Positions 1 to 63,964 of a stretch of 64,000 nucleotides of DNA are shown piece by piece. The translations under genes were made by a program, and so were the position numbers. The notes below the pieces were generated by a model. It was not told the DNA's origin and searched no databases. It was given only the letters and a program-made list of their open reading frames with translations. Origin of the DNA: Candidatus Latescibacterota bacterium (GTDB lineage: Bacteria > Latescibacterota > UBA2968 > UBA8231); contig OZ241867.1 in assembly GCA_965203175.1 (NCBI GenBank), positions 3,040,001 through 3,104,000 on the forward strand, written 5' to 3'. How positions within the stretch are numbered: position 1 is the first letter of the stretch; every line of letters starts with the position of its first letter.

Positions 1-1152
1 TCTCTCGCCGACGACGCAGACAAAGGCGGCAACCTCGGTGCCTTCTTTGACCAAGCTGGTGCTGTACCTAGCCTGCGCGATGGCACCTTTCACTTAGAGG
101 AAGGCCAAGTCAGCGAGCCGATCCGCACGATTGACGGATACGAGGTCGTCAAGGTCCTTAAAAAACGACGCATCCCCTTTGAGAAATTGCGCGCTGATAT
201 CGCCGAGCAGGTTGGCCAACGCAAGTGGGCGCAGCGGCGACGGGTGGTAATTGACTCGCTCAAGGAGGTGCGCAGCTTGCGCTATCACCGCGACCGCATC
301 CACGCCGTGCTCGCCGCGTTGCACGGCCGTGCGTTGGACCAACCCCACGCACCGCTGATTGAATATGAAGGGGGAGGCATTGGTAGCGGTGACGCCGTGC
401 GGGGGCTCCGCTCGCTTAAGAAGGGAGCGCTGCCGCCCGACAGTGCAGCCGCGGTTTTGGCTGTTGAACGGTGGATTCTCCCGGATTCCCTGTTGGCTCT
501 CGAAGCCCGTATGCAGAGGCGGCATCTATGGCCCGCTGTGGTAGCGTGGGCCGAGGGACAGAAGCAGTCGCTGCTCGTGTCGCAATTGCGCCTAGACGCG
601 GTGGCGGGAAAGGTCTCAGTGACGGAAGCAGAGGTGCGGGATTACTACGAGCAACACTTGGAAACCTACCGCTCCCTGCCCGGCGTCATCGAGATGACCG
701 AGGTGCTGGTCGATACGCGCATGGAGGCCGAAGAAATTCTCGCGCGGGCGCGCAGCGGGGAGAGGCTGGCGGAGTTGGCCCAGCGCCACTCCGTGCGACC
801 CAGCATGAAGCCGGTAGGCGGCCACACTTTCTCCGACAGCGGTCGGGTTACTATCAAGTCGCTTTATCAGTCGCCGTACCGCACCTTTTTTGGCGACAGC
901 AATTCCAAAGACGTCGGGGTCTTACAAGGGCCGATGGAAGTCCAGGAGAAATACAGCGTGTTCCGCCTCGACCAGCCTTACGGGATGGCGTTGCTGCCCT
1001 TTAAGCAGGTGCAGCGTCCCATTCGCGTTAAGATCCACAAGCGCCGTGAAGGTGTACTCTTCGACGCGTTCCTCGACTCGCTGCGCCAAGCATACGCGGG
1101 CGAGGTACACATCAGCCAAGACGCCCTCACTCGCTACACTGCCGCCTTTTAA
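1..1152 (+). CDS. Parvulin/PpiC-type peptidyl-prolyl isomerase (SurA/PrsA-like foldase), 5'-truncated by the window edge
   Basis: Frame is open from base 1 and reads SLADDADKGGNLG...GQVSEPIRTIDGYEVVKV (parvulin motif). A second rotamase-like domain follows (VTEAEVRDYY, LAELAQRHS, GVLQGP). Paralog of 39607..41310. Confidence 0.8.
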   Translation, partial: SLADDADKGGNLGAFFDQAGAVPSLRDGTFHLEEGQVSEPIRTIDGYEVVKVLKKRRIPFEKLRADIAEQVGQRKWAQRRRVVIDSLKEVRSLRYHRDRIHAVLAALHGRALDQPHAPLIEYEGGGIGSGDAVRGLRSLKKGALPPDSAAAVLAVERWILPDSLLALEARMQRRHLWPAVVAWAEGQKQSLLVSQLRLDAVAGKVSVTEAEVRDYYEQHLETYRSLPGVIEMTEVLVDTRMEAEEILARARSGERLAELAQRHSVRPSMKPVGGHTFSDSGRVTIKSLYQSPYRTFFGDSNSKDVGVLQGPMEVQEKYSVFRLDQPYGMALLPFKQVQRPIRVKIHKRREGVLFDAFLDSLRQAYAGEVHISQDALTRYTAAF

Positions 1153-1154
1153 AA

Positions 1155-3173
1155 ATGCGCGGTCGGCTCGCGGCGCTGCTGCTCGGCTTGGTTTTGGTCG
1201 CGCTCATTGAGGGAGGGTTGCGGCTGATCCCGGCGTTGGATCCGCCAGCGTTTGCCATCCAATTAGCGCGCGTCGAAAACCGGGCGCTCCACGCGGTCAA
1301 CCCGGATTATGCCCGTCGCTTCTTCGCCGACATGGCCGAGCCTATCCGGCGCGGCATCCGCATGACCCCGAGGCCCTATATCGAACCCGCGCCCGAGGGT
1401 GCATTGCGCGTGCTCTTTGCCGGGGGTTCGACCGTACAGGGCTACCCTCACCCCAAACGTTTATCGGCTCCGTCCTATCTCCAAGAAATGCTCGGCGATC
1501 TTTTCCCAGCGAGCCAGATCGAAGTCTTTAACGCTGGGATCACCGCTGCGTCGAGCTTTGCTGTGGCCCGTGCGGTAGAAGACGGCACTGCCGCACTCGG
1601 GGCGGACTTGGTCGTAGTCTATACTGGTCACAACGAGCTATACGGGGTTTATGGGGCGGCCTCGTTGGCCCAAGGAGGGCAAGCAGTGTGGATGAAGCGG
1701 GTCCACTACGCGCTGGTGCAGTGGCGGCTGAGACCCTTGGTCGGCAAGCTGATAGGGCCGTTGGGCAAAGAGTGGTCGGATGGGCCCTTGATCGAGGTGA
1801 TGTCTAAGGCAGGCGCGATCCCGGCGTCCGATCCGCGGCGGGCGCAGGCGGCGGCAAACTTAGAGACTAATCTCCGCGACGTGGCGGCCTTTTGCCGAGT
1901 CCGGCGCATTCCCTTGGTGCTCTGTACGGTGACCAGCAACGAGCGCGGTTTCGCGCCAGCGCGCATGGAGCCGCCGTTGCCGGATGGGGAGCGCGCGCGC
2001 TATGTGGATTTTTTGGCGCAGGGCCATAGGGAGCAAGCGTCGCCGGCCGCCCTGGCGGCCTTGGAACAGGCCGAGGTGCTCTATGCAGACGACGCCTACT
2101 TGCACTTCTTGCGCGGTTATCACTTAGAGCAGTTGGGCCGTGGGGCTAGGGCACGGGCGGCTTATGTGCAGGCTCGCGAGTTAGATCCTCGGCCTTGGCG
2201 GGCGCCGGCCGCCCTAAACGAGGTCGTGCGCCGAGTTGCGGCTGAAGAAGGGGTACTTCTCGCCGATGTGGAGGCGCGCTTCCGCGCCCACAGCTCGGAG
2301 GCAGGCGTGGGTTGGGAACTGATGGCCGATCACTTGCATCCGGCGGTGGTCGGCCAAGTGCTCTTGGCTCGATCTATTGTCGCTGCGCTGGAAAAGGCAC
2401 CGACCCCTTGGATGGTCGCACCCGATGCTGCGGATCGGTTGGCGGCAGCCGATGAATACCGCCGTAGACTCGGTGATCTGCCCGTCGAGCGGCTAGCCGT
2501 GCTGCGGGCCATGGTTGTGCTCTTGGCCACGCCGCCTTTGGATGAAGGCAACGAGCATCGAGTGCAGACCTTGCGCGAGCAGGCCACGGCCCTGTGGGAC
2601 GAACTGAGTGCTGGAGAGCAGAGCGGAGTCGAGCGCTGGCAAACGGGAGAGGGACCGGAGCTATTGGCGCTGAACGTGGCTGACGCGTGTTACGACGCTC
2701 AGGAGTACGCGCGCGCGCGGGCTTATTATCGCGCGGCCCGTTTGGAGAATCCTTATACAATATGGGGCGATTTGTGGAGCACGTTGCGCCAGATGCATTG
2801 TGGCCAACTCGCGGGAGATTCCATTGGACCGACCGACCGCGCCGTACTCTCTGCCCTGCTAGATCGCTTGCGCTTCTTGAGCGCGGCCCCAGATTTTTCT
2901 CTAGGGTTACAGGACTTTATCCGCGGCTATGCCTACCATTTGCTCGGAGAGCATATCAGGGCGTTAGCAGCGCTAGAAAGCGCAGCGCAAGACGCGAACA
3001 TCCGCAAGATGTTTACGACGGACTTGCTAGAGCTGCTCGTCGCCGAACTGATGAGTGCAGGTCGCTTGGCCGACGCCGAGCGGTACGCCGTGCAGATAGC
3101 TGTCGAGCAGCAGCAAGAGGCGTTCGGTCGGGCACTCATCGAGCAGATTAGGGCGGGTCAGAAGCCGCGCTGA
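1155..3173 (+). CDS. SGNH/GDSL-family hydrolase/acyltransferase with N-terminal membrane anchor and TPR-like helical repeats
   Basis: SGNH blocks GGSTVQG, NAG, YTGHNE and DHLHP; TPR-like helices inserted and at the C-terminus; hydrophobic N-terminus. Confidence 0.75.
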   Translation: MRGRLAALLLGLVLVALIEGGLRLIPALDPPAFAIQLARVENRALHAVNPDYARRFFADMAEPIRRGIRMTPRPYIEPAPEGALRVLFAGGSTVQGYPHPKRLSAPSYLQEMLGDLFPASQIEVFNAGITAASSFAVARAVEDGTAALGADLVVVYTGHNELYGVYGAASLAQGGQAVWMKRVHYALVQWRLRPLVGKLIGPLGKEWSDGPLIEVMSKAGAIPASDPRRAQAAANLETNLRDVAAFCRVRRIPLVLCTVTSNERGFAPARMEPPLPDGERARYVDFLAQGHREQASPAALAALEQAEVLYADDAYLHFLRGYHLEQLGRGARARAAYVQARELDPRPWRAPAALNEVVRRVAAEEGVLLADVEARFRAHSSEAGVGWELMADHLHPAVVGQVLLARSIVAALEKAPTPWMVAPDAADRLAAADEYRRRLGDLPVERLAVLRAMVVLLATPPLDEGNEHRVQTLREQATALWDELSAGEQSGVERWQTGEGPELLALNVADACYDAQEYARARAYYRAARLENPYTIWGDLWSTLRQMHCGQLAGDSIGPTDRAVLSALLDRLRFLSAAPDFSLGLQDFIRGYAYHLLGEHIRALAALESAAQDANIRKMFTTDLLELLVAELMSAGRLADAERYAVQIAVEQQQEAFGRALIEQIRAGQKPR

Positions 3174-4869
3174 CACCCTCGCCTTCGACGAGCGCGATGT
3201 CTTGGTTGGCTGCAAAGGGGCCGAATCGCTCGGTTCGGCCCGAAGGCCAACGTACTTCTAATGCGTCGAGTTGCGGTCGTTTCCCCAGTCCCAAACAGAT
3301 GTGGAGTTGACTCTGCGATAGGTACGAGCGACTGCCGCGTAGTTCCCTAGTCTGGACCAAGTCGCCGCTAGTTGCCGTCAGCCGGGCACCGATGCCATTC
3401 GGGTTGCCGTTGGTCCCAACGAGCCGGATGGTCATCCAGTGATTGGCCTCGCCTTGATCGTTGCGCAGCAAGCTGAGCGGTTGCCCTGAATTAAAGACTA
3501 GTAGATCGGGATCGCCGTCGCCGTCGTAGTCGCCAGCGGCACTTCCGCGACTGACGCGCTCTAAAGAGAAACCGGGACCGGCCGCTGTGGAAATCTCGGC
3601 GAAGCGGCCGCCGTCGTTGCGGAAGAGCAAATTGCGCTGCCCATAACTGGTGGATTGGTCGATGTCGCGGACGTTGTCGAGAACGTGGCCGTTGGCGGCA
3701 AACAGGTCGAGATCTCCATCGAGGTCGGGGTCGAAAAACTGGGTGCCAAACCCGAGGAAGGGCAACGACGGAAGGCCTATCCCGGCGACAAAGGTTGCAA
3801 CCGAGAAGAAGCTACCTTCGCCCCGATAGAGTGCGTTAGGCTCGGCCTGGAAGTTGGTCACCGTTAAATCGAGTACGCCGTCGCCGTTGTAGTCCCCCCA
3901 ATCTACCCCCATGCCCGCTTCCATTTGTCCGTCTTGGCCATAAGCTACCCCGGCCAGTCCCGCTCTTTCGGCAAAGGTTCCATCGCGGTTGTTGTGGTAG
4001 AGGAAGTTGCGCACTGCATCGTTGGCCACGTAGATGTCGGGCCAACCGTCGCTGTCGTAGTCGCCAAAAACTACCCCTAGCCCCTTGCCGCTCGCATCGG
4101 CGATGCCCGCTCCTGCCGATACATCGACAAATCGTCCTGCGCCGTCGTTGCGGTAGAACAAATCAGCTTGGCCTTGGAAGTTGTCTGGATGCGGATAGCC
4201 GACAGGAGCTTGGCCACCATAGCTTTCGTAGCTGGCCATATAGGGCACTTGGTCGGCGCGGGCCGCGGCTGGATCGTAGGCTACGTAGTTGGCGACATAG
4301 AGGTCGAGGTCTCCGTCGCGGTCATAATCGGCAAAGGCACAACTCGTGCCCCAGCGCGCATCGGCAACGCCTGTATGCCGTCCGATTTCAGCAAAGTGTC
4401 CGTCGTCGTTGCGAAAGAGTGCGTTGGGGCCAAAGTTGGTCAAATAGAGGTCGAGGTCTCCGTCGCTGTCGTAGTCGGCCGCGGCTACTCCCATGCCAAC
4501 ACCTGGGTGGGCGACCCCAGCCGCGACTGAGACAAAGCGCTGGCCGTCGTTGAGAAAAAGACTATTGACAGGGGCCGCATCTCGTGGGTCGGCGGCGATA
4601 AAAGCGCCGTTTACGGCGTAAACATCTAAATCGCCATCGCCGTCGTAGTCGAAGAAAGCACCTCCGCCACCCATAGTCTCGGGGAAGTAGCGCTGAGGAC
4701 TGCGGCCGTTTTCGTGCTGCCAAGTCAGGCCGACGGCAGATGCTACTTCGACGAAGTAGAGAGACGAAGCTGCAGGTGCGGCGTGTTGCAGCGGTGCAGG
4801 TGGCACGGTCTCTTCGGTGGAGTTACAGGCTAGACAGAGAAAGCAGATGAGAAGGACTAGTATGGACAT
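3148..4869 (-). CDS. CRTAC1/ASPIC-UnbV family lipoprotein (FG-GAP repeat beta-propeller)
   Basis: Repeated DYDxDGDLDLY motifs, PETMGGGG, C-terminal GIGAR...SYLSQS...LGLG...VRWPSG. Start moved to ATG 4869, which gives lipobox LCLAC and follows directly on the upstream stop. Confidence 0.85.
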   Translation of the reverse strand: MSILVLLICFLCLACNSTEETVPPAPLQHAAPAASSLYFVEVASAVGLTWQHENGRSPQRYFPETMGGGGAFFDYDGDGDLDVYAVNGAFIAADPRDAAPVNSLFLNDGQRFVSVAAGVAHPGVGMGVAAADYDSDGDLDLYLTNFGPNALFRNDDGHFAEIGRHTGVADARWGTSCAFADYDRDGDLDLYVANYVAYDPAAARADQVPYMASYESYGGQAPVGYPHPDNFQGQADLFYRNDGAGRFVDVSAGAGIADASGKGLGVVFGDYDSDGWPDIYVANDAVRNFLYHNNRDGTFAERAGLAGVAYGQDGQMEAGMGVDWGDYNGDGVLDLTVTNFQAEPNALYRGEGSFFSVATFVAGIGLPSLPFLGFGTQFFDPDLDGDLDLFAANGHVLDNVRDIDQSTSYGQRNLLFRNDGGRFAEISTAAGPGFSLERVSRGSAAGDYDGDGDPDLLVFNSGQPLSLLRNDQGEANHWMTIRLVGTNGNPNGIGARLTATSGDLVQTRELRGSRSYLSQSQLHICLGLGKRPQLDALEVRWPSGRTERFGPFAANQDIALVEGEGVSAASDPP

Positions 4870-4870
4870 G

Positions 4871-6373
4871 TCAGGGACTCGGCAGTTGAGCGAGCCGCTC
4901 GCGGGCTTGGCGCAGGAAGTCTGGGTCGCCTTGCCACTTGTCGATAAAGGTTTGATAGCAACGGCGTGCCTCCAAGACCGCGCCCTGGGCTTGGTACACG
5001 GTTGCCAGTGCGTAATAGGTTCGCGCAAAAGTCGAATCAGCCGAAAGCGCCGCCTGATAGGCTCGTTGTGCTTGAGCTAGCTGCCCTTTTTGCAAGAAGA
5101 GGCTGCCGAGATTATAGTGGGCATCGGCCAGAGTTGAGTCAGCGGCAATGGCCGATGCCAACGCCCGTTGCGCCGCCACTTCTTCGCCTAAGCTTAGCTG
5201 GACATGGCCGAGGTTATTCCAAGCTGTGGCCGAAGACGAATCCAGTGCCAGTGCGTGCTCGAAGGCCGTGCGGGCCTCTTGATACTGGTCTCGCCGCATA
5301 TAAACATAACCACAGGTGAAATGGAGCTTGCTAGTGCGCACATCCTCTGGGTGCTGAGAGATGCCTCGGCGGCATAGTTCGAGCACTTCTTGATCTTCTC
5401 CCTGCGTCAATAAAAGTCCGCTTAGCGAAATTAGGGCCTCTAAGTCGTTCGGGTCAGCTAGCAGTATGGCCCGATAGTGGGTGAAAGCGTCGTCGTCTCG
5501 ACCCAGTTGTCGATAGTGGTAGGCTAGTTGCAAGCGAGTCTCACGGTGGTCGGGCTCGGTGTCGAGCTGGCGACGCAGGTGCGCGATTTGAGCAGCGTGG
5601 GCAGCGAGGGTCTCAAAACGTGCCAGCGCCGCCTGCGCTTGAGTTGGCTGTCTCAGTCCCAAAAGCGCCGAAGAAAGATTGTAGTGAGCCTCGATTAAGT
5701 GCGGGTCGAGCGCGAGCGCGCGGCGAAAGGTCGCCAGCGCCTCTGGGTAACGCCGCTCGGCTAGGTGCAGCAAACCCAGCAGACGATGACTCTCGGCTAG
5801 GGTCGAGTCTTGGGCGAGGGCTAGGTCGAGCGCGGCTCGGGCCTCGTCGTAGCGTCCTTGACGCACATAGAGCCGGCCGAGTTGTTGCCGCACGTCAAAG
5901 TCTTCCCCGCCCCCCTCTAATGCAGCGTGCAGTCCTTTTTCGGCTAGGTCGTAGCGCCCTTGTTTGGCATAGAAGAGGGGCAGAGTGCGGAGGGCTGGGA
6001 CGTAGGTTGGAATGCGTTCGAGTAACTCGATGGCCAACGGCAGGTGGCCCCGGTCGGCCTCGACCACAGCTAGGTTGTGTCGGGCGCGATGATAGGTGGA
6101 GTCGGCTGCGAGCGCGGCTTCGTAGGCTTGGACGGCCCGCTCCACGTGCCCGAGCCGAGCGTCAAGATCACCCAATGCACAGTGCGCTGCGGCGTCGAGC
6201 GAGTCTATGGCTAGCGCTTTTTCAAAAGCGCGGCGTGCCTCGGCGTAGCGGTGTTCTTCAGCGAAGTCACGCCCGGCCTGCACCAAGCGGTCGCTTTCTT
6301 TTTTGGGGACGGGATCTACGCCGCAACCACTCAACGTCACCCATAGTACGGCGATCGGGACAACCAAGCTCAT
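4871..6373 (-). CDS. TPR-repeat lipoprotein
   Basis: Lipobox LSGC; many TPRs (AHYNLG, AWNNLG, ALAADST). Confidence 0.85.
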   Translation of the reverse strand: MSLVVPIAVLWVTLSGCGVDPVPKKESDRLVQAGRDFAEEHRYAEARRAFEKALAIDSLDAAAHCALGDLDARLGHVERAVQAYEAALAADSTYHRARHNLAVVEADRGHLPLAIELLERIPTYVPALRTLPLFYAKQGRYDLAEKGLHAALEGGGEDFDVRQQLGRLYVRQGRYDEARAALDLALAQDSTLAESHRLLGLLHLAERRYPEALATFRRALALDPHLIEAHYNLSSALLGLRQPTQAQAALARFETLAAHAAQIAHLRRQLDTEPDHRETRLQLAYHYRQLGRDDDAFTHYRAILLADPNDLEALISLSGLLLTQGEDQEVLELCRRGISQHPEDVRTSKLHFTCGYVYMRRDQYQEARTAFEHALALDSSSATAWNNLGHVQLSLGEEVAAQRALASAIAADSTLADAHYNLGSLFLQKGQLAQAQRAYQAALSADSTFARTYYALATVYQAQGAVLEARRCYQTFIDKWQGDPDFLRQARERLAQLPSP

Positions 6374-7704
6374 TGCGGGGAGTTCTCTTGCGCGGATAGC
6401 TGTCGTCGGGCTTCGGCGATTTTGGCTTGCAAAGCCTCATTGGCCGCCCCACCAGACGGAACGTTCTCCCAGAGCGCAATGGCCCGTGCGAATTCGCCTC
6501 GGCGGGCGTGGATATCGCCGAGCAGTATGCGGGCACTATAGAGCTTCTCATCCAGTTCGATGGCCCGCTCGACGGCCGCCTGCGCTTGGTCCAGTTGATC
6601 CATTTCGAGGTACACATTGCCGAGATTGGAGTAGTAGAAACCCGTAGATGGGGCAAACCGCACAGCCCGATCGTATTGTCTGAGGGCCTTTTCTAGTTGG
6701 CCTTGCTTGTGAAAGATCAAACCCAGATTGTTGTGGCTTTCGGCTAGGGTTGAGTCGTGGCTCAATGCTTCGAGGTAATAGCGCGCCGCTAAATCGTCCT
6801 TGCCCCGGCGCTGGAGCAGCGTGCCCAGCCCTTGGTACCCCAAGCCATAGGTCGAGTCGATAAGGATGGACTGGCGATAGTGCTCGACAGCTAGTTTGAG
6901 ACGTCCAAAGCGACTGTAGAGGGCGGCAAGATTGGAGTGGGTTTGGGGTTGGTCGGGGTGCTGGCGCAGCGCATCTTGATGGGGCTTGAGTTGGGCGTTT
7001 TGTTCGTCCAAGACGCTCGCTCGCTCGAGGGCGCGCTGCCCTTCCGCATCGCGGCCCATGCGCAACAGAGCCTGCCCGATTCCAAGGAACGCGGCCGGCT
7101 CGTGAGGACTGAGACGCGCGACTTGGCGCAGTTGGCGCTCGGCCTCTTGGTAATTGCCCAATTTTAGGTCTGCTAGACCTAGCTGTAGTCGAGCTTGAAG
7201 GTGGGTGGAGTCGGCAGTGGCGATGGCGGCAAAAACCTCGCGGGCTTCTTGTAGCTGGCCTTCGCGTTGGTGGATCACGCCTAGAATATACCGCGCTTCG
7301 ACAGCGTTAGGGGCTAGTTCCAGTGCCTCGGTGAGGAGTTGGCGAGCCTCCTCTATTTTTCCGTGTACATCGTAGAACATTTTGCCCAAGGCGATGCGGG
7401 GCCCGGCGTAGTCGGGTTTTAGCTCAAGCGCCTTCTCAAATTGGGTCTGCGCCTCGGCAAAACGACTCTGGGCGTGCAATACAACGCCGAGATAGTAGTG
7501 GTATTGGGGGTTGTCTGGAGCTTGTTGCAGCGCTTGGCGATAGGCTTGCTCGGCTTGGGAGAAGAGGCCGCGGGCTTGGAGTGCGCGACCGGCGGCAAAA
7601 GTCTGAGCCGCTGGGTCGGCGGGCGATGCGGGGGCTTGCGTTGTATCAGGAGTTTCGCCATCGCAGGCAGCGAATACAAATAAAAAGACTAGGGCAAGGC
7701 GCAT
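6370..7704 (-). CDS. TPR-repeat lipoprotein
   Basis: ATG 7704 has a GGAG RBS and gives lipobox FAAC; TPRs (YHYYLG, SHNNLG, YYSNLG). An in-frame upstream TTG at 7821 is an alternative start. Confidence 0.85.
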   Translation of the reverse strand: MRLALVFLFVFAACDGETPDTTQAPASPADPAAQTFAAGRALQARGLFSQAEQAYRQALQQAPDNPQYHYYLGVVLHAQSRFAEAQTQFEKALELKPDYAGPRIALGKMFYDVHGKIEEARQLLTEALELAPNAVEARYILGVIHQREGQLQEAREVFAAIATADSTHLQARLQLGLADLKLGNYQEAERQLRQVARLSPHEPAAFLGIGQALLRMGRDAEGQRALERASVLDEQNAQLKPHQDALRQHPDQPQTHSNLAALYSRFGRLKLAVEHYRQSILIDSTYGLGYQGLGTLLQRRGKDDLAARYYLEALSHDSTLAESHNNLGLIFHKQGQLEKALRQYDRAVRFAPSTGFYYSNLGNVYLEMDQLDQAQAAVERAIELDEKLYSARILLGDIHARRGEFARAIALWENVPSGGAANEALQAKIAEARRQLSAQENSPQ

Positions 7705-7829
7705 AAGTTTACTCCGATATGAAGCGATTGATGCTTTGATTCCGTCGGTAAAGAGCGGCCCAGCGCTGAGAATGGGTGGCGCGCAAGCAAAGATCAAAAG
7801 AGCTTGGAAGTAGCTAGACAAAGGGCCTC

Positions 7830-10017: not shown

Positions 10018-12672
10018 TCAATAGGCCAGCGATAGAGTCCCCGAACGCTCCGTAGAGACGTTGTCCAAGTCGATGGCGAGCCGGTAGAGATAAATACCCG
10101 GCGGCGCGACCTGCCCTTGGCTGTCGCGGCCATCCCACTCAACTTGGAGGTTGCCCGCTGTCGAACCGCCGGTCTGGATCTGGGCAATGCGACGGCCAGA
10201 CAGATCGTAGATTTCGAGTTGGACATCGACCTGATCGAGGACGAGAAAAAGGTCGAAGGAAAAAGTGACTTCGTCGTTGATGCCATCGCCGTTGGGGGTA
10301 AAAGGGTTGGGGGCGATATGAGGCGTCCTGACGATTTGGTTGATCTCGTCGGCAACTACGAGGAGCGCATTGGTGGCGATGTCGGGGGTGGCGTCGCCAT
10401 CCTCGGCTGGTTGCGGGATGGATTCGACATCTGGGTCGCCTTGGTCATTCCACACCGAACTGGTGAACTCTTCTGAGCCGCGGAAGAGCTTGGAGCGGAA
10501 GACGATCTCGATGCTCTGGTCGAATTGGAAATGCTCGGCACCCATCAGGGGCAGCTTAATGTGCAGTTTGGACGAGCCGGTGCGCGGGTTGGTGACTACG
10601 CTTTGGGCAAATTGTCCCAAGCTATCGGTGCGGCCTGCTGCTGGGGCAAGGCGGATGGGATGGACGTCGCTCAGGGGATCGGTGCCCGTGCCAGGGGCGA
10701 TTTCGGTCCAGTCTTGGCCGTCGAAGCGCAAGGTGTCGATGCGCGTGTCTGCGCTGGGCACGGCGATCTCGATCCGGTTGAAGGTGGTGGCCTCGCCTGT
10801 TTTGAAGAAGGGTCGGACAAAGTAGCGGAAAGCCGTCTCCTCACCCAAGGGGACGCGCGAGGGGAAAATCTCAGCGACGATCCCCCCTGAGACCAGCGGT
10901 GCGTCGTAGTCGAACTCGATGAAGTCCAACAGCGCTGTGCTGTGCTGGGCGGAGTCGAAGAAGATGCGGAACTGGATGTAGCGAGTGCCGCCGGGCAAGG
11001 GCAGTTGGACGCCGGTGTTTTGCCACTCGGATTCGGGCAAGCTCTCGTCGATGAGGGCGTCTTCGAGCTTGAAAGGTGCCGACCAGAAGCTCCAGCCTAG
11101 GAGGCCGTCGTCGCCTAGGTCAACACCAAGCTCGTTGTATTGCAGTTCGCGCTCGGGGATGCGGCCTTCGGGAATCTTGATCCAGGAAAACAGATCGAGA
11201 AGATTGCCGTTTTCGTCTTGGGTATCCGAAAGGCCTGGTCCCAAGCGGCGGGCGTAGATGTGGGTGTCAAGGGTGTTGCCAACGCGGAATTGGATGCGGA
11301 TGTCGCCGTCGCGGCCGTCGCGGTTTCCGCGCCAGCGCACCTTGCCCCAGTTGACTTGATCGCCGTCAACATCGAGGGGGAACTGGCTTTCATAGGCATC
11401 GCGCTGCGAGCCGGCGAATTGCTCGATCTCGCGGTCGTAGCGCCGGATGCGCGGGGTGGATGTGCCTACGTCGATGATGGCCGAGATATACTGTCCGTCG
11501 ATGGCGTAGCCGTCGCCGAAGTAGCCCGCTTCGGCGGTTTCGACATAGGTGCCCTTGGGATCCGTCGAGACTACGTCGACGCGGCCGGCGACAAAGGGGT
11601 TGACGAATCGGAAATCCTTGACTACCGGATTGAACTGGCCGTTGGTGACGGGAACTAGTGTTCTACTCGCTTGGATGGTTTCGGAGCGGCTGCTGATCGT
11701 GGTCTGGTTGCCGTAGCGGATGTAGTAGTTGGCAATGGTGCTGGCGGGCAAGGTCGGCCGCGGGCGAAAGACAATGCGGTTGAGATAGTAGTAGCCCATC
11801 AAGTTGATGCCAACGCCGCCGCGGTTGTAAATGGCGGAGCCGTATCCTGTGCTAAGGTTGCCATCGACGATCAGTTCTGCGTCGACTCGACCGATTACTT
11901 GGGCAGTCGCCCAGTGATCGGCCGAGATGGGATCGGCGATCTCGCGGCGGAAGCCGTATTCACTCGGCACCACCATAAAGGGACGCTGGGGATCCTTGCC
12001 GGGAATGATGCCGCCAAACTCGCCGGCCTTGAAGCGCTGGTTGAGCAAGTAGGCGAGGTTGCGCAGGCTGTCCAGACGCACCGGCCGCAGCCAAGTGGTC
12101 ACCCCTTGGCCGTGCTCGGGCAGCGAGGGATCTTCGTCGATGAGTCCATCGCCGTCGTCGTCGATTCCGTTGATGGGATCCTCGTTGAGTTGGCCATCCC
12201 AATCGTCGTCAAAGAGCGTGTACAACCCGTCCTCGTTGAGTTGACCATCGCCGTCATTATCGAATTGAGGATCCGGTCCGTCCTCGTTGATGAGTCCATC
12301 GAGATCGTTGTCGATCAGTTCAAGTGGGTCTTCGTCGATGAGTCCGTCGCCGTCGTCGTCGATTCCGTTGGCTGGGTCTTCGTTGAGTTGGCCGTCGTCG
12401 TCGTTGTCCACTTGCTCGTCGGCTGGGTCTTCGTTGATCAGCGCGTCGTCGTCGTTGTCGACTAACTCGACGGGGTCTTCGTCGATGAGTCCATCGCCAT
12501 CGTCGTCGGCGATCAACTCAACAGCCCAACTGCGACCCAAGTCGAGGCGCCCGGTGACCGGCCGCAGGATCCAAGGATGCACATCGTCGCCGACTCGCCA
12601 CCGCTTGATTTCGGCAGAGCCGTTGCTGGACACAAACGCCACGCCGAGTACCGCTACCAACAACCTGATCAT
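10018..12672 (-). CDS. Secreted protein with Asp-rich Ca-binding repeats, discoidin-like domain and C-terminal FlgD-Ig/CHU_C-like domain (family member 1)
   Basis: GGAGG RBS, signal peptide, 8 DxDxDGxxxED repeats, WSFWSAP, RYIQF, AEIFP, PNPFTPNGDGIND, IYDLSGR, WDGRD, PGIYLY, ends LSLAY. Confidence 0.75.
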   Translation of the reverse strand: MIRLLVAVLGVAFVSSNGSAEIKRWRVGDDVHPWILRPVTGRLDLGRSWAVELIADDDGDGLIDEDPVELVDNDDDALINEDPADEQVDNDDDGQLNEDPANGIDDDGDGLIDEDPLELIDNDLDGLINEDGPDPQFDNDGDGQLNEDGLYTLFDDDWDGQLNEDPINGIDDDGDGLIDEDPSLPEHGQGVTTWLRPVRLDSLRNLAYLLNQRFKAGEFGGIIPGKDPQRPFMVVPSEYGFRREIADPISADHWATAQVIGRVDAELIVDGNLSTGYGSAIYNRGGVGINLMGYYYLNRIVFRPRPTLPASTIANYYIRYGNQTTISSRSETIQASRTLVPVTNGQFNPVVKDFRFVNPFVAGRVDVVSTDPKGTYVETAEAGYFGDGYAIDGQYISAIIDVGTSTPRIRRYDREIEQFAGSQRDAYESQFPLDVDGDQVNWGKVRWRGNRDGRDGDIRIQFRVGNTLDTHIYARRLGPGLSDTQDENGNLLDLFSWIKIPEGRIPERELQYNELGVDLGDDGLLGWSFWSAPFKLEDALIDESLPESEWQNTGVQLPLPGGTRYIQFRIFFDSAQHSTALLDFIEFDYDAPLVSGGIVAEIFPSRVPLGEETAFRYFVRPFFKTGEATTFNRIEIAVPSADTRIDTLRFDGQDWTEIAPGTGTDPLSDVHPIRLAPAAGRTDSLGQFAQSVVTNPRTGSSKLHIKLPLMGAEHFQFDQSIEIVFRSKLFRGSEEFTSSVWNDQGDPDVESIPQPAEDGDATPDIATNALLVVADEINQIVRTPHIAPNPFTPNGDGINDEVTFSFDLFLVLDQVDVQLEIYDLSGRRIAQIQTGGSTAGNLQVEWDGRDSQGQVAPPGIYLYRLAIDLDNVSTERSGTLSLAY
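12128..12510 (-). repeat. Intragenic tandem Asp-rich repeats (8 units of 16-17 aa, consensus D[DN]DxDG[LQ][IL][DN]ED[PG])
   Basis: Read directly from the translation and from recurring DNA such as tcttcgtcgatgagtcc and cgttgagttg. Confidence 0.9.
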
Positions 12673-13084: not shown

Positions 13085-13097
13085 ACTGCCCTATATA

Positions 13098-50328: not shown

Positions 50329-50330
50329 TC

Positions 50331-53063: not shown

Positions 53064-53073
53064 GAGGATTTCT

Positions 53074-55587
53074 ATGACGAGCAGACATTGGGCGATCTGG
53101 ATTTTAGTCATCGCGCTCGGTTGCCGGGCCGCAGTGGCTCAAGAGGGGTACGCGATTCAAGGCAACCGCATTGTCACCCAAGGTGCAGACCAGTGGCACC
53201 AATGGATTTTTCCCTTTGGCACGGTCGATATCGACTCCGAGGGCGCTAGACCGCACTTTGTGGCGTCGGAACTCAATGCCTGCCTCAATGCGCACCGCTT
53301 TCCCCTATGGGCCGACGAAGATGAAAAGGAAGGGGGGATCTTGTCGGCTGGATCGGGGCTGGCCGGAGCAGTGCGCATTCTCGATGGCAATGTAGATACC
53401 TACTGGGAGCCCGACCTAGACGATCCACAGGATCTGTGGTGGGTGGCGATTGACTTGGGGCGGATCGTATCGGCCAAGCACATTGTTTTGCGCTTTGCCC
53501 GGGAAGGTGAGGGCGATCCGTTTTACCAATTCCGCCTGATGGTGGCCGACGGCGAAGGCAAGGTTGGCGATAATCTCGATTATCACTTGGTCGGCAAGAC
53601 CGAGCGACCCAATGTGGACCAACGCGAATTTTCGTTTGATCTACAGCCCTTTCAAAGTGCCGATCCCCATTTTACCGGCGATGCCTTTCGCTTTGTGCAG
53701 GTGGTGATGACGGACAGCCGCTTGGGCAAGGCCGAGGAAGTGGACAGCTTGGCCTACCAGAATTTGCCAGCGAAGCTGCAGGGCGCAGTGGAGTACTTTG
53801 GTCGCAGTCGCAGCGGGAGCGAGTGGCTGCTCGACAGGGAGGCCTATGAACTGCTCGATCAGTCCGAGCGGGGTTCAATCCGCTATTACCGCCGCGAACA
53901 ACCGCGCCTCGCCGAGGTCGAAGTCTGGACCTTGGGCGAGAATATATCGCTGGGGGCGATCCAGCGGGGCGGCACAGTGGAAGGGCACGGCTTTAATCCC
54001 ACTCGCAGCCTCGATGGGGACTACACAACTTGGTACGGTCTGCAGCAGAGTTATACCCGCGAGGCGGCCGAGCCCGAGCGGCAAGTTCTCTTCGACCTAG
54101 GGGCTTTGTACTGGCTGGATTTATTCCACTTTCTGCCGCCAGCGGCCCGCAGCGCCGGCGGCACGCTGGGCAATTATCGGATGAAATTGTCGGACGGTTC
54201 GCTCGCTCCTGACGGAAGTCTGCAGTGGGTACAGGTCGAAGAGCGGCGAGTCTTCCGCCAGCCTCGGTTCCAAGAGGTGCGCTTTGAGTTGCAAAAGGTC
54301 CGCTACATCGCCTTTGACTACCTAGTGGGCAGAGGGGGCAACAGAGCCGGATGGTCCGAACTCCAGGCTTACGGCGAGGGCTATCAGCCGGAAGTGGTGT
54401 TAGAATCGCCGTTGATCGACTTGAGCAGTAGCATGAATTTGACCACGCTCCACTGGGAGGCCGACGTCCCGCCCGGTACGCGCATTGAGGTGGCCACCCG
54501 CACCGGCGATCAGACCAAAGTCAACACCACGTATTATCGGAGCGACGGCGCTGAGGTGGACAAAAAAGCATACCATAAATTGATTGCCGCGCTCAAGGGG
54601 GATTCGCTCAATGTGTTGGTCGTCGATGAGGAAACTTGGAGCCCTTGGAGCAAACCGCACCTGCTGTCGGGCCAAGTCATCACTTCGCCGTCGCCACGTC
54701 GCTTCCTCAAGACCCAGGTGCGGTTGAGCAGCGACGACCCGCAAAATGCCGTGCTATTGCGGCGCTTGGAGGTGTCGTTTTCCCAACCGTGGGTGGGCAG
54801 AGCCTTGGGCGAGGTATTCCCGGTACAAGTGGAACATCCGGGAGAGGACACGCGGCTGACCTTTTTCGTGCGGCCTGTGCGGCGGGCGGGCGATCCGGGC
54901 ATTGACGAGGTGTTGTTGGTCAGTTCAGGGGAGACGCCGCTGGCGCTACGGGAGGTACGCCTTGGCTCGGCAACAGAAGTAGCTGCCGGAGGTGGCGAAG
55001 CGCTGGGCCTAGATGTGGTGGAAGTGCTCGAGACCGCGACCGATTCGCTGTGGGTACGCCTGCCCAACGCAGTCGGCCGCAACGAGGTCCTCGCGGTTGA
55101 TGTATTGACCGCGCTATTTGGCCACGGCGTTTCCTTTGCCGGACGGGTGGGCAACCGCGATGATTCGGGAACTTGGCAATTGGTCGAAGCCGATCAGGAG
55201 GCCGTGGCCGAAGTGGAAAGCGGTGTCCTTCGGGTGTTGGTGCCCTCGGGTCAGGTGGGTTTGGCGGACCTGACGCTGGATACAAAGGTCTTGACGCCCA
55301 ATGGGGATGGGATCAACGACGCAGCGCGGATTGGCTTTGAAGTGCTGCGCTTGGATGGAGCCCAGGTGGTGATCGTCTCGGTGCACGATCTGGCCGGTCG
55401 CCGCCTTTGGACACTGGAGCAGGTGCGCGAGCGGGCGAGCGGGCAATACGAGGTGGTTTGGGAGGGAATGGATGATGCGGGCGAGCGGGTGCCGCCGGGG
55501 ACGTATATTTTGCGGGTGGAGGTGGATGCGGATGCGCGCAGCAATGTGCGGACTAAGATAATACGGCTAGCTCACGTGGTGTATTGA
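53074..55587 (+). CDS. Secreted protein with two discoidin-like domains + FlgD-Ig/CHU_C-like domain (family member 5)
   Basis: AGGAGG RBS; LDGNVDTYW...IDLGR...AEVEVW and LDGDYTTW...FDLGA...SELQAYGEGY; WSPWS, GEVFP, LTPNGDGIND, ends AHVVY. Confidence 0.78.
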   Translation: MTSRHWAIWILVIALGCRAAVAQEGYAIQGNRIVTQGADQWHQWIFPFGTVDIDSEGARPHFVASELNACLNAHRFPLWADEDEKEGGILSAGSGLAGAVRILDGNVDTYWEPDLDDPQDLWWVAIDLGRIVSAKHIVLRFAREGEGDPFYQFRLMVADGEGKVGDNLDYHLVGKTERPNVDQREFSFDLQPFQSADPHFTGDAFRFVQVVMTDSRLGKAEEVDSLAYQNLPAKLQGAVEYFGRSRSGSEWLLDREAYELLDQSERGSIRYYRREQPRLAEVEVWTLGENISLGAIQRGGTVEGHGFNPTRSLDGDYTTWYGLQQSYTREAAEPERQVLFDLGALYWLDLFHFLPPAARSAGGTLGNYRMKLSDGSLAPDGSLQWVQVEERRVFRQPRFQEVRFELQKVRYIAFDYLVGRGGNRAGWSELQAYGEGYQPEVVLESPLIDLSSSMNLTTLHWEADVPPGTRIEVATRTGDQTKVNTTYYRSDGAEVDKKAYHKLIAALKGDSLNVLVVDEETWSPWSKPHLLSGQVITSPSPRRFLKTQVRLSSDDPQNAVLLRRLEVSFSQPWVGRALGEVFPVQVEHPGEDTRLTFFVRPVRRAGDPGIDEVLLVSSGETPLALREVRLGSATEVAAGGGEALGLDVVEVLETATDSLWVRLPNAVGRNEVLAVDVLTALFGHGVSFAGRVGNRDDSGTWQLVEADQEAVAEVESGVLRVLVPSGQVGLADLTLDTKVLTPNGDGINDAARIGFEVLRLDGAQVVIVSVHDLAGRRLWTLEQVRERASGQYEVVWEGMDDAGERVPPGTYILRVEVDADARSNVRTKIIRLAHVVY

Positions 55588-61691: not shown

Positions 61692-63114
61692 GACTCCCTC
61701 CTTGCTGCTTCACCAATACAAAGTGTGCAGTTCAAAGGTTGTGAAGATTAAGTATACAACCAAGCTGAGCATTTAGAAACAAAATTTCTTCCTCGTTTTC
61801 GATTTCAATAGGCGACGGCAAAGACGCCCTGTTGGGTGTATTGCTCCTCGGAATCGAGCGTCAATTCGTAGATATAGGTGCCGGGTTGAACCAACGCGTC
61901 CTGCTCATTGCGACCGTTCCACTCCTGGACAAAGACACCACTGCGGGCTTTGACCACCGGCAGGTGCGCCAGCAGCCGACCCGCTAAATCGTAGATACGC
62001 ACCTGCACGGCCCGCTCTACTGTGACCTCGCGCAGCTTGTAGGCGATGGTCAAGGTCTCGTTGATCCCATCGCCGTTGGGGGTAACTACTTGGGGCACTT
62101 GCACATCCACCAGCAGATCACCTCCCACCGGCGTGTTGACCGCCAGCAAGTCGCCAGCAAAGCGGAACGTGGCATTGCCCGGGTCAATCCGCTGCCGAAT
62201 CTGATCCGGGTCCGTGCTGCTGAACACCCAGCCGCTGAACTCAGTGCCAAAGCGCAGCACCGGCACGTCGAAGGCGACTTCGATCTGTTTGAAGTTGTCG
62301 GCGCTGCCCGTCAGGGGAGGGAAGGACACGATCAGGCGATCGTCGAGCAGGTGGGGGACGAACTGGTCTAGATCGACCGGCTGGCCATCCAGCCGCACGG
62401 CGCGCACCGCGTGCGCCCGGACATGGGTGAGGATTTCCAAGCGGTCAAAGCCGGCGTTGTCGTCGTTGAGGGTGGGCAAGACCACATAGGTGAAGGGCGT
62501 GGGTTCAAAGGAGTTGACCTCGATAGGCCAGATTTCGCCGACGAGGGCCTGTGCCGACAGAGTTTCGCTCAACTGTAGGGTGAGTTGATCTAGGCGCGGC
62601 GCCACATTGAGGTCGGCGAAGAGTTTGATGGCGAGTTGGATGTATTGGCTGGGTCCGGGCGACAGCAGCGGGCTCCCGTCCTGCCAGGCGCTGGCCGGCT
62701 GGTCGGGGTCGCGCAAGCCAGCGGCAAAGTCATAGGGCGGCGACCAGAAGCTCCAGTTATCGGCATCGTAGGTGGGGACTAGCCGGGCGGCGATATCGAT
62801 GTTGGCGTGTTCGGCGCGGGTGATGGGTATGAGTTCGTCGTTGACATTGGGTGCGAAGTAGAGCAGCGGATCGGGGGTGTGGCCGGTGCGGGTGCGAATC
62901 TCGATGCGGGTGCCTGCGGGCATGTCGCCTTCCCAGCGTATTTTGCCCCAAGTGACGGGTTGTCCGAAGTCGAGGATGGGGGTTAGGTAGGTTGTCTCGT
63001 GGACGTAGCCGCCCCCATAGATTTCGAATTCGGCGATTTCGTAGTCGCGCAGGGGGAAGGCGCGCAGGGTGAGCCAGCGAACCGGGCGAGTGGAAAAGCG
63101 CAGGTCGACGATGG
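59545..63114. repeat. Direct repeat, ~1.3 kb units (about 59545-60850 and 61809-63114, offset 2264 bp)
   Basis: Long identical DNA tracts, e.g. 59841-59978 vs 62105-62242. Confidence 0.88.
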
Positions 63115-63964
63115 GGTTGAGATTTTCGCGGGTGGACTCCAGCACTGTCAGCAGGGGATCGCCGCTCCGCACCCACCGCAAGTTGCCCAGCACCGTGCGG
63201 CGCTTGCTGGTGGCCACAGCGCCTATGTCGCGCTTGGAGCTGTCGAAGAGGAAGGTGCTAGTACCGCTGCATGGATCTGGGGCAAAGACGACGGAGTTAT
63301 CGCCGGTGCGGATCTCATACCAAGCGAGAAAATTGTCGAGGAAGCTGTCTTGGCCGAAGCTCTCGACATCTGGAGTCGGTTCCCGCAGGGATTCGATCAG
63401 TTGGCGGTCTTCGCGCTGGCTCAGGCGGGGATAGAAGCGGATGCGATTGATGGGGATTGCGCCGCCAAGATCAAAGACCACGGCTCCCCTCCAGGTAGAG
63501 CCATCTCCAGGCCGGCCCCCGGCCCGTTGCACAAAGGTTCGAAAAGTGGCCGTAGAGGGATCGCCGTCCAGCATTAGTTTGATCGTATTGGCATGTAATT
63601 GCGCCTGACCGCAACTATTAGTAAGGACTCTCGAACCGGGCATATAGGGCAGGGGGATCTCGGTCTTGCTGGCGTGGACATCGGCCCGGGCGATATTGAC
63701 GGAGGGATCAATCAAACGGGGCTGAATGGCTGTGCCGGAGAAATCGACCAGCGTATCGGCCCCCGCGCCAAAGGGCGATATCCTCACTGGCACTTGTCTC
63801 TCTGGCTGGCCGTCGGCATCTTGGATCTGAAAGAAGCTCTCTTTGGTCAAGACCGTCTGCCAATCGTTTCCGCTAATCCCGCCCAGACGGTATTCGGTTG
63901 CACCAAATACGTGCGCAGCACTGAGCGGCATAGTAAAAACGAGAAATAACACAAGCCCTGCCAT
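61805..63964 (-). CDS. Secreted discoidin-like + FlgD-Ig/CHU_C-like protein (family member 7), tandem duplicate of member 6
   Basis: AAGGAG RBS; near-identical C-terminal ~60% to 59541..61691; ends FAVAY. Confidence 0.8.
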   Translation of the reverse strand: MAGLVLFLVFTMPLSAAHVFGATEYRLGGISGNDWQTVLTKESFFQIQDADGQPERQVPVRISPFGAGADTLVDFSGTAIQPRLIDPSVNIARADVHASKTEIPLPYMPGSRVLTNSCGQAQLHANTIKLMLDGDPSTATFRTFVQRAGGRPGDGSTWRGAVVFDLGGAIPINRIRFYPRLSQREDRQLIESLREPTPDVESFGQDSFLDNFLAWYEIRTGDNSVVFAPDPCSGTSTFLFDSSKRDIGAVATSKRRTVLGNLRWVRSGDPLLTVLESTRENLNPIVDLRFSTRPVRWLTLRAFPLRDYEIAEFEIYGGGYVHETTYLTPILDFGQPVTWGKIRWEGDMPAGTRIEIRTRTGHTPDPLLYFAPNVNDELIPITRAEHANIDIAARLVPTYDADNWSFWSPPYDFAAGLRDPDQPASAWQDGSPLLSPGPSQYIQLAIKLFADLNVAPRLDQLTLQLSETLSAQALVGEIWPIEVNSFEPTPFTYVVLPTLNDDNAGFDRLEILTHVRAHAVRAVRLDGQPVDLDQFVPHLLDDRLIVSFPPLTGSADNFKQIEVAFDVPVLRFGTEFSGWVFSSTDPDQIRQRIDPGNATFRFAGDLLAVNTPVGGDLLVDVQVPQVVTPNGDGINETLTIAYKLREVTVERAVQVRIYDLAGRLLAHLPVVKARSGVFVQEWNGRNEQDALVQPGTYIYELTLDSEEQYTQQGVFAVAY

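Follow-up and report, generated by a model that had tools for sequence, protein, structure and literature searches.

A multi-copy giant-barrel cassette and a linked Ton-type motor operon as candidate parts of one Latescibacterota envelope system

What kind of machine is encoded when the same few envelope protein families fill most of a 64-kb stretch of a bacterial genome? The stretch analyzed here, called the window throughout, covers C1:3040001-3104000, C1 being the single contig of a 6.58-Mb Latescibacterota genome (93% complete). It is best explained as holding two linked parts of one Latescibacterota envelope system, a multi-copy cassette and a single-copy conserved operon. The cassette comprises one or two giant outer-membrane barrels, three paralogous, enzyme-free, lectin-like beta-sandwich proteins with a type-B-like C-terminal tail (Ta, Tb, Tc, and sometimes Td), a SurA-like lipoprotein of the parvulin type, and either a CBM9-like protein or a lipoprotein of small size, with FG-GAP/ASPIC propellers and GT-C/tetratricopeptide repeat (TPR) glycosyltransferases as frequent extras. 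As to its working, we tentatively favor binding subunits that are delivered through a type IX secretion system (T9SS), dock on cognate giant barrels, and serve energized capture or uptake, a reading that we put just short of an even chance. An earlier note on this DNA had proposed a candidate envelope system, undescribed so far and made of recurring families that fill about three quarters of the window. Both points held, and the system proved to be real and conserved: with their TPR, GDSL, Kelch, and metallo-beta-lactamase (MBL) neighbors, the families add up to approximately 49.6 of the 64 kb (77%; sum of gene lengths), and they are co-located far above random, in an order that is kept in public genomes.

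Gene content, paralogy, copy number, and conservation were read directly from the following comparisons. Window proteins were scanned with Pfam and NCBIfam (39 of them in the Pfam scan), and paralogs were counted by comparing all open reading frames (ORFs) of the genome of at least 90 amino acids (aa) with the window proteins, after coverage filters. For the census of tail proteins, a hidden Markov model was built from the window tails and iterated once, and ORFs were counted if the domain lay at their extreme C-terminus; the criterion for a full-length tail family was E<1e-20 over at least 70% of the length, and assignment to Ta, Tb, Tc, or Td reflects the nearest window reference sequence. 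Barrel loci are chains of family genes in this genome. Public loci are the best 80 of 611 stretches encoding barrel relatives, 51 of them at least 20 kb long. The phylum survey covered 151 Latescibacterota genomes (taxonomic families labeled f1, f2, f3, f4, f9, and f10), and the motor loci sampled numbered 14, one in each of 14 genomes that belong to five or more taxonomic families.

The giant-barrel cassette

The earlier note saw the same families recur together three times. They do recur, but at two loci. Of the first, only the end is in the window, its barrel being just upstream (C1:3035888-3038638); the second is one long locus at 35-64 kb, which has as its core a plus-strand operon of tightly packed genes (41.6-59.4 kb). 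The genes of the two loci are as follows.

1..1152 (+): SurA-like parvulin lipoprotein, C-terminal 383 of 567 aa (Rotamase_2/Rotamase), last gene of the cassette upstream of the window; full ORF C1:3039449-3041152, lipobox VAGC
35005..36843 (-): tail protein, subtype Ta (CHU_C and FlgD_ig), in the 158-protein family described below
36912-37916 (+): Kelch propeller (Kelch_1 158 bits)
37846-39597 (+): ASPIC/FG-GAP protein (FG-GAP_3 162 bits, UnbV_ASPIC 73 bits)
39607..41310 (-): 567-aa SurA-like parvulin lipoprotein, divergent from the cassette operon (Rotamase_2 60 bits, SurA_N_3 weak, lipobox LSAC)
41664..42554 (+): CBM9-like paralog, opens the cassette operon
42508..44499 (+): tail protein, subtype Ta (CHU_C 43 bits), 48% identical to 35005-36843
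44525..45394 (+): MBL-fold protein (Lactamase_B_3), a one-off operon insert without paralog in the genome
45410..47581 (+): tail protein, subtype Tb (FlgD_ig 32 bits)
47599..50328 (+): giant outer-membrane barrel, 909 aa, without Pfam, NCBIfam, or PDB-sequence match
50331..53063 (+): another giant barrel, of 910 aa, which shares 47% identity with the first
52972..55587 (+): tail protein of subtype Tc that includes a discoidin-like domain (FlgD_ig 34.6 bits, F5_F8_type_C 29.8 bits)
55597-57411 (+): ASPIC/FG-GAP protein (Pfam matches)
57380-59413 (+): GT-C+TPR glycosyltransferase, operon end (Pfam matches), spacing tight or overlapping from 55597
59541-61691 and 61805-63964 (-): two tail proteins, subtype Td (CHU_C 44.9 and 46.8 bits), the second of which may start beyond the window

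Pfam and NCBIfam bore out the family inventory of the note, namely seven tail proteins, two proteins of ~910 aa, two GT-C+TPR proteins, two parvulins, a PorV/PorQ-family barrel, and ExbB/ExbD, with two amendments. There are three FG-GAP/ASPIC-UnbV proteins as claimed, but a lipobox-like N-terminus is visible by eye in only two of these supposed lipoproteins, and the regular-expression scan, which flagged the parvulins, a 248-aa protein, and one TPR protein, flagged none of them. Of the two proteins called CBM9-like, that at 13056-14078 matches CBM9_1; that at 41664-42554 has no Pfam match, yet is 31% identical to the former.

The giant barrel has 62 paralogs in the genome, and the 40 barrel loci span 815 kb, or 12.4% of its length, with the typical gene order (CBM9-like or lipoprotein) - Ta - Tc - Tb - barrel (- barrel) - parvulin. 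A tail protein lies within 10 kb of every barrel (62/62 versus 0.40 at random), and over the same distance barrels are accompanied by a parvulin (61% versus 0.11), a CBM9-like gene (52% versus 0.11), an ASPIC gene (34% versus 0.14), a 248-aa lipoprotein (27% versus 0.05), or a GT-C gene (19% versus 0.04). Seen from the side of the partner families, 34 of the 37 parvulin lipoproteins, 28 of the 35 CBM9-like proteins, 15 of the 17 members of the 248-aa lipoprotein family, 37 of the 59 ASPIC proteins, and 13 of the 14 GT-C/TPR proteins are encoded within 15 kb of a barrel. The same arrangement is found in the public loci (homologs have "Candidatus Latescibacterota" record titles, with some Gemmatimonadota or other labels): a tail ORF flanks the barrel in 80/80, and the 51 loci of at least 20 kb hold exactly three tail ORFs in 42 cases, four in 8, and five in 1, along with a parvulin in 40/51 and a CBM9-like gene in 41/51. 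That unrelated, expanded envelope families came to lie together by chance in a repeat-rich genome is therefore hardly credible; each family is indeed large, and barrel loci fill 12% of the genome, but the co-location exceeds random expectation by far, public genomes preserve both the order of the genes and the number of three tail genes, and the genes are tightly packed or overlapping on one strand.

Tail-bearing ORFs number 246 in the genome, a mean of 2.4 per 64 kb versus the 7 of the window, and 5.4% of the 64-kb windows of the genome hold at least seven. As many as 158 of the 246, including six of the seven in the window, form one full-length paralogous family that splits into 48 Ta, 31 Tb, 65 Tc, and 14 Td members. 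The tail proteins are therefore not the variable cargo for which they had been taken, but belong to three or four set types of paralogous subunit, and a barrel usually comes with three of them. All seven window members end in ...Y. CHU_C (PF13585) exceeds its 27-bit cut-off in five of the seven, with FlgD_ig likewise over cut-off, whereas the T9SS models TIGR04131 (22.9-30.9 bits, cut-off 35) and TIGR04183 (17.9-20.8 bits, cut-off 23) remain below theirs in the five of seven proteins matched; the NCBI pipeline names some homologs "T9SS type B sorting domain-containing protein". None of the tail proteins showed a lipobox in the N-terminal scan. The two Td proteins are 81% identical to each other and 80-86% identical to a tandem pair 1.1 Mb away (C1:1971315-1975796), a similarity that points to recent duplication of a two-gene unit.

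The AlphaFold2 model of Tb (pLDDT 85.7) is an all-beta chain of beta-sandwich domains, for which Foldseek matched no enzyme fold, but Fn3/Ig domains, RbmA, S-layer proteins, and galactose oxidase in its discoidin-like domain. Such adhesin, S-layer, and Fn3-like folds, together with the FG-GAP/ASPIC, Kelch, discoidin, Receptor-L, and TPR domains of the accessory genes in the loci, favor the main rival to uptake, which is pure surface display or adhesion. According to this rival, the barrels would be static anchors for three T9SS-delivered beta-sandwich proteins (serving adhesion, attachment to matrix or host, or a coat of the S-layer kind), nothing would be transported, and the motor operon would be a Tol-Pal-like device for envelope maintenance that merely shares the lineage. 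There is a precedent in the Bacteroidota T9SS, for which one paper describes type-B cargo, recognized by its C-terminal domain, with cognate PorP/SprF anchor barrels (PorP-PorE-PG1035 and SprF-SprB; PMC9143113). We consider display alone unlikely, although it has to be taken seriously, and return below to the evidence on either side.

The cassette may be transcribed. Contigs from RNA libraries (four libraries from three studies; 90-99% likeness) cover 21 to 29 of the 30 bins of the 41-60 kb region, which is a weak sign only, the contigs being those of relatives and the comparison having no silent-stretch control. Two of these contigs extend across Ta and MBL into the beginning of Tb; the one of 4.07 kb also spans the CBM9-like gene, within which the one of 4.10 kb begins. 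The bin 58753-59386 is uncovered in all four runs and is given no weight. As to habitat labels, 52-61% of the sampled words of 45410-53063 occur in runs labeled sponge metagenome (three studies), and RNA libraries labeled marine, coral, and sponge contain parts of the same segment. Elsewhere in the genome, a 375-aa member of the 248-aa lipoprotein family with a C-terminal extension (C1:6510190-6511317, locus L168) directly follows three barrels; its TonB_C match is borderline (26.4 bits in six-frame search, 23.7 bits in hmmscan, cut-off 24.6), a lead only.

Barrel fold and type IX secretion genes

The giant barrel has more than 1,128 relatives in databases; every source that names them uses "hypothetical protein", and no precomputed Pfam domain is attached to any of them. 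Neither Pfam (E<=10) nor NCBIfam, including the PorP/SprF model TIGR03519, gave a match, and a profile of 52 barrel sequences found none among PDB sequences at E<=10. The AlphaFold2 model (pLDDT 72.7, pTM 0.71) shows approximately 26-30 long strands (our own count from DSSP), which occupy residues 139-496 and 612-906. Foldseek and VIA-align retrieved outer-membrane barrels only (LptD, MtrB, SlpA, ushers, porins, TonB-dependent transporters, and SprA), all at TM-scores <=0.3 and without a standout; the match to SprA (Foldseek E 4.6e-4, TMq 0.25) is no better than those to other barrels. On this model, the protein is an outer-membrane barrel of no known family. We rejected two routes to a name: VIA-align, in which porins, CymA, SlpA, ushers, LptD, and BamA tied at Z 10.8-13.6, and DUF6029 (a TonB-receptor-like barrel), the nearest named ESM Atlas cluster, whose value of 0.89 is below trust level.

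With PapC and FimD among the structural matches, and with one chaperone gene and three genes for Ig-like-ended subunits per barrel, the cassette could be read as a chaperone-usher-like system, in which the barrel would be the usher, the parvulin lipoprotein its dedicated chaperone, and Ta, Tb, and Tc the subunits of a surface fiber. This is very improbable: the usher matches are tied with porins, LptD, and SlpA, window proteins gave no Pfam match to usher or PapD-like chaperone families, and the subunits are multi-domain proteins of 600-870 aa with T9SS-type tails, not pilins. Barrel size also bears on display, as a barrel of ~26-30 strands is far larger than an anchor needs. Predicted as a complex, the barrel (residues 23-909) and the Tb tail (residues 618-723) gave a score of 0.01 and a mark of 0.32, a result that weighs neither way.

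The earlier note recognized no SprA or PorK/L/M/N in the window. In the whole genome, the statement stands for part of the list only. Genes for SprA (C1:2482242-2487677; TIGR04189, 618 bits summed, cut-off 200) and PorU (NF033707, 632 bits, cut-off 420) lie outside the window, PorU being directly followed by a PorV-like gene (147 bits, below the cut-off of 250) and then by a homolog of T9SS-dependent M6-like proteases, and SprA is present in 146 of the 151 phylum genomes, over cut-off in 145. GldL, GldM, and GldN models had no match in the genome, nor in 14 control genomes, GldM was over cut-off in 0/151 phylum genomes, and GldK gave partial FGE-sulfatase-type matches only (<=84 bits versus a cut-off of 350); the genome is 93% complete, and these model searches had no positive control, so that "not found" is the correct wording. 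With SprA, PorU, and a PorV-like gene elsewhere in the genome, export of the tail proteins needs no new secretion machine, and judging from sequence they could be exported by the canonical translocon.

One option of the earlier note was an autonomous exporter analogous to the T9SS, in which each giant barrel would be the translocon or assembly pore for its own three tail proteins, chaperoned by the parvulin, with an ExbBD-type motor in place of the missing GldLM. Besides the negative Gld results, all the more so as SprA is nearly universal in the phylum, this option can draw on the PorV/PorQ-family barrel and PorW/SprE-like TPR protein of the motor operon, on a barrel size within the range of translocons and ushers, and on the dedicated periplasmic chaperone gene in most cassettes. 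We nevertheless regard it as improbable, because the SprA, PorU, and PorV-like genes already present are sufficient in principle, families f2-f4 have SprA but neither barrel nor motor operon, forty translocons for three substrates of near-identical fold each would be without precedent, and the Gld negatives are those of uncontrolled searches.

Two small FGE-sulfatase-fold proteins are encoded inside barrel loci (C1:6504836-6505591 and C1:5761689-5762600). The former is the genome's best match to the GldK model (84 bits) and lies one tail-protein gene away from a long TPR gene. GldK and PorK share the FGE-sulfatase fold, and these proteins could be track-like parts.

The motor operon

The second part of the proposed system occupies 13.0-21.6 kb of the window, in the following order.

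13056..14078 (+): CBM9-like secreted protein (CBM9_1 E 2.5e-7)
14075..14821 (+): 248-aa lipoprotein of an unnamed family (lipobox VLGC; no Pfam or NCBIfam match)
14857..15792 (+): PorV/PorQ-family outer-membrane barrel (NF033709 73 bits, cut-off 90; PorP/SprF 48.8 bits, cut-off 90.55; C-terminal ...FAYEF)
15850..19095 (+): 1081-aa TPR protein with YbgF/BamD/PorW-like repeats (TPR_6 282 bits; YbgF model 294 bits; PorW/SprE model 117 bits, cut-off 250)
19139..19792 (+): ExbB/TolQ-type proton channel (MotA_ExbB PF01618 81.6 bits; TolQ and ExbB equivalog models below cut-off)
19822..20229 (+): ExbD/TolR (PF02472 97.2 bits)
20267..21643 (+): 458-aa protein anchored in the membrane; TonB/TolA-like helix of S-x3-H pattern, DUF4159 at the C-terminus (89 bits)

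The earlier note linked a Ton-type motor to the system, and conserved synteny, an operon fusion in one lineage, and a matching distribution by taxonomic family support the link. The order TPR>ExbB>ExbD is kept in 14/14 loci of relatives, the DUF4159 gene comes next in 13/14 (the contig ends there in the remaining one), and the PorV-like barrel lies directly upstream of the TPR gene in 10/14. Two loci of the small-genome family f9 have a giant barrel directly upstream of the motor genes, preceded in one (L036) by Tb-like and Tc-like tail genes and standing alone in the other (L048); such a fusion of barrel and motor operon argues against display. The S-x3-H helix pattern is that of TonB/TolA anchors, and its anchor histidine is kept in 10 of the 11 DUF4159-protein orthologs that have their N-terminus. 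Within the genome, five of the six long-TPR paralogs, three of the five ExbB genes, and all four assigned DUF4159 genes belong to barrel loci, where they frequently adjoin runs of two or three barrels; four further TPR/DUF4159/ExbBD paralog sets beside barrel triplets likewise speak against display. PorV-like barrels have five paralogs.

In the phylum survey, the giant barrel was found in 95/151 genomes, the DUF4159 protein in 90/151, and full-length orthologs of the 1081-aa TPR protein in 65/151 (42-94% identity, mostly one per genome). Family f1 has the barrel, the DUF4159 protein, and SprA in 63/63 genomes each and the TPR ortholog in 50/63, whereas barrel, DUF4159 protein, and TPR ortholog were each not found in f2 (0/30), f3 (0/19), and f4 (0/2), with SprA in 30/30, 19/19, and 2/2, respectively. 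This family-level distribution indicates that the motor travels with the barrel system, not with SprA. We therefore rejected, as the principal reading, that the operon is the general T9SS motor of the phylum, given that f2-f4 have SprA without it. That it is the Ton system of the genome's TonB-dependent transporters is unlikely as well, with a classical ExbB and a TonB_C protein at C1:3503113-3505261; TonB_C matches occur at four places in the genome, all outside the operon.

Display accommodates part of the motor evidence, since the ExbB of the window scores best with the TolQ model and the 1081-aa TPR protein with YbgF/CpoB, and since the lack of a Pal lipoprotein match in the genome makes a non-canonical Tol-like system plausible; against this, the best TolQ-like gene of the genome lies elsewhere (C1:6529066, 129 bits).

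The motor region differs in composition (12000-22000, G+C 0.52-0.54 versus 0.59-0.62 in the flanks), though the conserved core operon is 92-94% identical in many genomes of the same genus. A second, 92% identical copy of the PorV-like barrel (C1:4466216-4467226) stands alone among unrelated genes, far from any cassette. A TPR-TonB fusion of ~900 aa (C1:3814645-3817353; TonB_C 32 bits) resembles part of the long TPR protein, and two long ORFs of 586 and 767 aa at C1:3333699-3337886 have a segment 63% identical to the window's ExbD.

The rest of the window flanks the operon on either side.

1155..3173 (+): GDSL/SGNH hydrolase-like protein with TPR (Lipase_GDSL_2 45 bits); five paralogs, several inside barrel loci
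3148..5028 (-): FG-GAP/ASPIC-UnbV beta-propeller protein (FG-GAP_3 147 bits, UnbV_ASPIC 63 bits)
4871-6373 (lipobox LSGC) and 6370-7821 (-): two TPR proteins (many TPR families); the order of the pair (4871..7821) beside the motor operon is kept in locus L042
7830..9920 (-): GT-C (PMT_2) membrane glycosyltransferase fused to TPR (PMT_2 48.7 bits)
10018..12672 (-): 884-aa tail protein with Asp-rich N-terminal repeats (FlgD_ig 42 bits, CHU_C 36 bits)
21.7-35 kb: EPSP synthase, DHDPS-family enzyme, GH42, BNR_2 protein, two PhyH dioxygenases, HpcH aldolase, and a DUF6785/DUF6784 membrane protein
32886..34913 (+): this DUF6785/DUF6784 polytopic membrane protein, a candidate inner-membrane partner (DUF6785 415 bits)

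The 884-aa tail protein, which lies outside the 158-member family, is a conserved divergent neighbor of the motor operon, with orthologs beside it in loci L041 and L042. Its N-terminus has ~150 residues of Asp-rich D-x-D-x-D-G-type repeats, possibly calcium-binding, that recall the conserved acidic loop of the giant barrels. The genes at 21.7-35 kb are catabolic and housekeeping genes unrelated to the envelope families; among them, a 519-aa protein (27498-29057, +) without Pfam or NCBIfam match has 16 paralogs, none within 15 kb of a barrel gene.

Proposed working and relation to known systems

In the energized-uptake reading, the tail proteins would use Sec to pass the inner membrane and the SprA translocon of the genome to pass the outer one, and would stay bound by their tails to the cognate giant barrel, as type-B cargo does on PorP/SprF barrels, the barrel or its partners being chaperoned by the parvulin lipoprotein. 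The surface complexes would bind ligands, probably glycans, which the barrel would pass inward on proton-motive force supplied by the ExbB-ExbD-TonB-like operon, toward nearby DUF6785 inner-membrane proteins and catabolic genes. The ~40 diverged copies might then represent ~40 specificities, in the manner of the polysaccharide utilization loci (PULs) of Bacteroidota. Hints of uptake come from the DUF6785 proteins, 27 of whose 56 paralogs lie within 15 kb of a barrel versus 0.20 at random, and from the catabolic island between the two loci of the window (21742-34913), with sugar-acid-type enzymes, GH42, and a BNR protein. Some 40 diverged copies of fixed stoichiometry, linked to 56 DUF6785 proteins, fit parallel uptake lines better than a coat. 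An energized barrel carrying surface proteins would not be far-fetched either, since Bacteroidota outer-membrane proteins of this kind are reported to be mechanically driven by the motor via a GldK/PorK track (PMC12635249).

Several points weigh against energized uptake. Docking, transport direction, energization, and ligand are inferred. The earlier note counted the motor and the PorV-like barrel as parts of the unit, which does not hold for typical cassettes: motor genes, PorV-like barrel, and long TPR protein are found in none of the 80 public loci, and within 10 kb of the genome's own barrels the shares are low for ExbB (3% versus 0.015 at random), as they are for the PorV-like gene (3% versus 0.017) and the long TPR protein (8% versus 0.018). 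With barrel loci filling 12% of the genome, some of the motor adjacency could be chance. The relatives surveyed are not independent, and f2-f4 may represent a single loss, so that there are few true contrasts; in f10, the matches to both the barrel (E 1e-20 to 1e-67) and the DUF4159 protein (~1e-28) are only weak, and no TPR ortholog was found. In the Pfam scan, the DUF4159 protein has no TonB_C (PF03544), DUF4159 being the sole domain detected. The barrel has no Plug domain (Pfam E<=10), hence no plug of the SusC/TonB-dependent-transporter kind, and none of the 32 Plug matches of the genome (31 over cut-off) is at a giant-barrel gene. Two barrel regions, the N-terminal 17-141 and the acidic loop at ~519-600, are highly conserved but modeled with low confidence.

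Bacteroidota PULs carry enzymes of the glycoside hydrolase, lyase, and peptidase types. Among 38 of the 70 unassigned ORFs within barrel loci that were scanned, we found no glycoside hydrolase, polysaccharide lyase, or peptidase family, but TPR, GT-C, and FGE-sulfatase proteins, small-molecule enzymes, and proteins of unknown family; the other ORFs are an 11-member TPR family, further members of eight small families of which one representative each was scanned, the MBL gene of the window (scanned earlier), and 8 short singletons. The absence of hydrolases among the ORFs scanned and the motor-free public loci are also points in favor of display.

How does the energized-uptake system compare with known machines? 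Like PorP/SprF pairs, it has a secreted surface protein with a type-B-like C-terminal domain encoded beside an outer-membrane barrel gene, in a genome with SprA, PorU, and PorV-like genes, and its likely logic is that of cargo bound to its own barrel. Unlike them, its barrel is ~910 aa long, with ~26-30 strands and no PorP/SprF match, and serves three paralogous cargo proteins accompanied by a parvulin lipoprotein and a CBM9-like protein, in 40 loci per genome; GldKLMN were not found, and the tails score below the NCBIfam type-A and type-B cut-offs. SusC/SusD PULs likewise pair an outer-membrane barrel with surface binding proteins in dozens of diverged loci, with a link to a Ton-type motor and with catabolic genes and inner-membrane proteins nearby. 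In contrast to these, the barrel here lacks a Plug or TonB-dependent-receptor domain, the partners have T9SS-type tails and no lipobox in the scan, glycoside hydrolases are missing from the in-locus ORFs scanned, and the scan of 39 window proteins, to which the search for SusD/RagB was confined, gave no match to this family.

The operon resembles ExbB-ExbD-TonB and TolQ-TolR-TolA-CpoB in its adjacent PF01618 and PF02472 genes, its third protein with an S-x3-H anchor, and its CpoB/YbgF-like TPR protein. It differs in that the output domain is DUF4159, not TonB_C or TolA_III, a barrel of the PorV/PorQ family is encoded with it, no NCBIfam equivalog score reaches its cut-off, and canonical TonB_C proteins are encoded elsewhere in the genome. 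Like the system, the extended T9SS translocon SprA-PorV-PPI-RemZ-SkpA-SprE (PDB 8gl8) unites a barrel of large size with one of the PorV type, a prolyl isomerase, and a TPR lipoprotein, but the giant barrel resembles SprA weakly, and the isomerase is here a parvulin lipoprotein. The top structural neighbors of the barrel are large plug-containing barrels, namely LptD-LptE, MtrB-MtrA, and SlpA of Deinococcus, and it is plausible by analogy that the CBM9-like protein or the lipoprotein is a partner inside or on the barrel; there is, however, no sequence relation to these, TM-scores are low, and their functions are unrelated. The system thus resembles T9SS cargo-anchor pairs and Ton-type motors, yet by the family models of each it belongs to neither.

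In the literature, we found no paper describing this envelope system, none linking Latescibacter with type IX secretion, nothing on DUF4159 beyond the Pfam paper, and, for T9SS with Gemmatimonadota or Fibrobacter, only general T9SS papers; the accessible part of the Latescibacteria genome paper has porins and Plug receptors only. At its boldest, the system would be a new class of outer-membrane machine energized by proton-motive force, in which giant barrels with three T9SS-delivered lectin-like subunits are driven by ExbB-ExbD with a DUF4159-ended TonB-like arm, a long TPR protein, and a PorV-like barrel; its ~40 copies with DUF6785 proteins would be the phylum's replacement for SusCD/TonB-dependent uptake loci, in a T9SS lineage without the GldLM motor. 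We regard this full version as doubtful.

One eighth of this genome, with comparable shares in relatives, encodes an envelope machine for which we found neither a database family nor a paper. In the DUF4159 protein there is a concrete case of a Ton-type motor whose output domain is new, and a phylum that has SprA, PorU, and PorV-like genes without recognizable GldLM makes the energization of the T9SS outside Bacteroidota directly testable. If the cassettes are uptake or capture devices, they would define how a widespread uncultured phylum feeds, and would constitute a third solution beside TonB-dependent transporters and SusCD.

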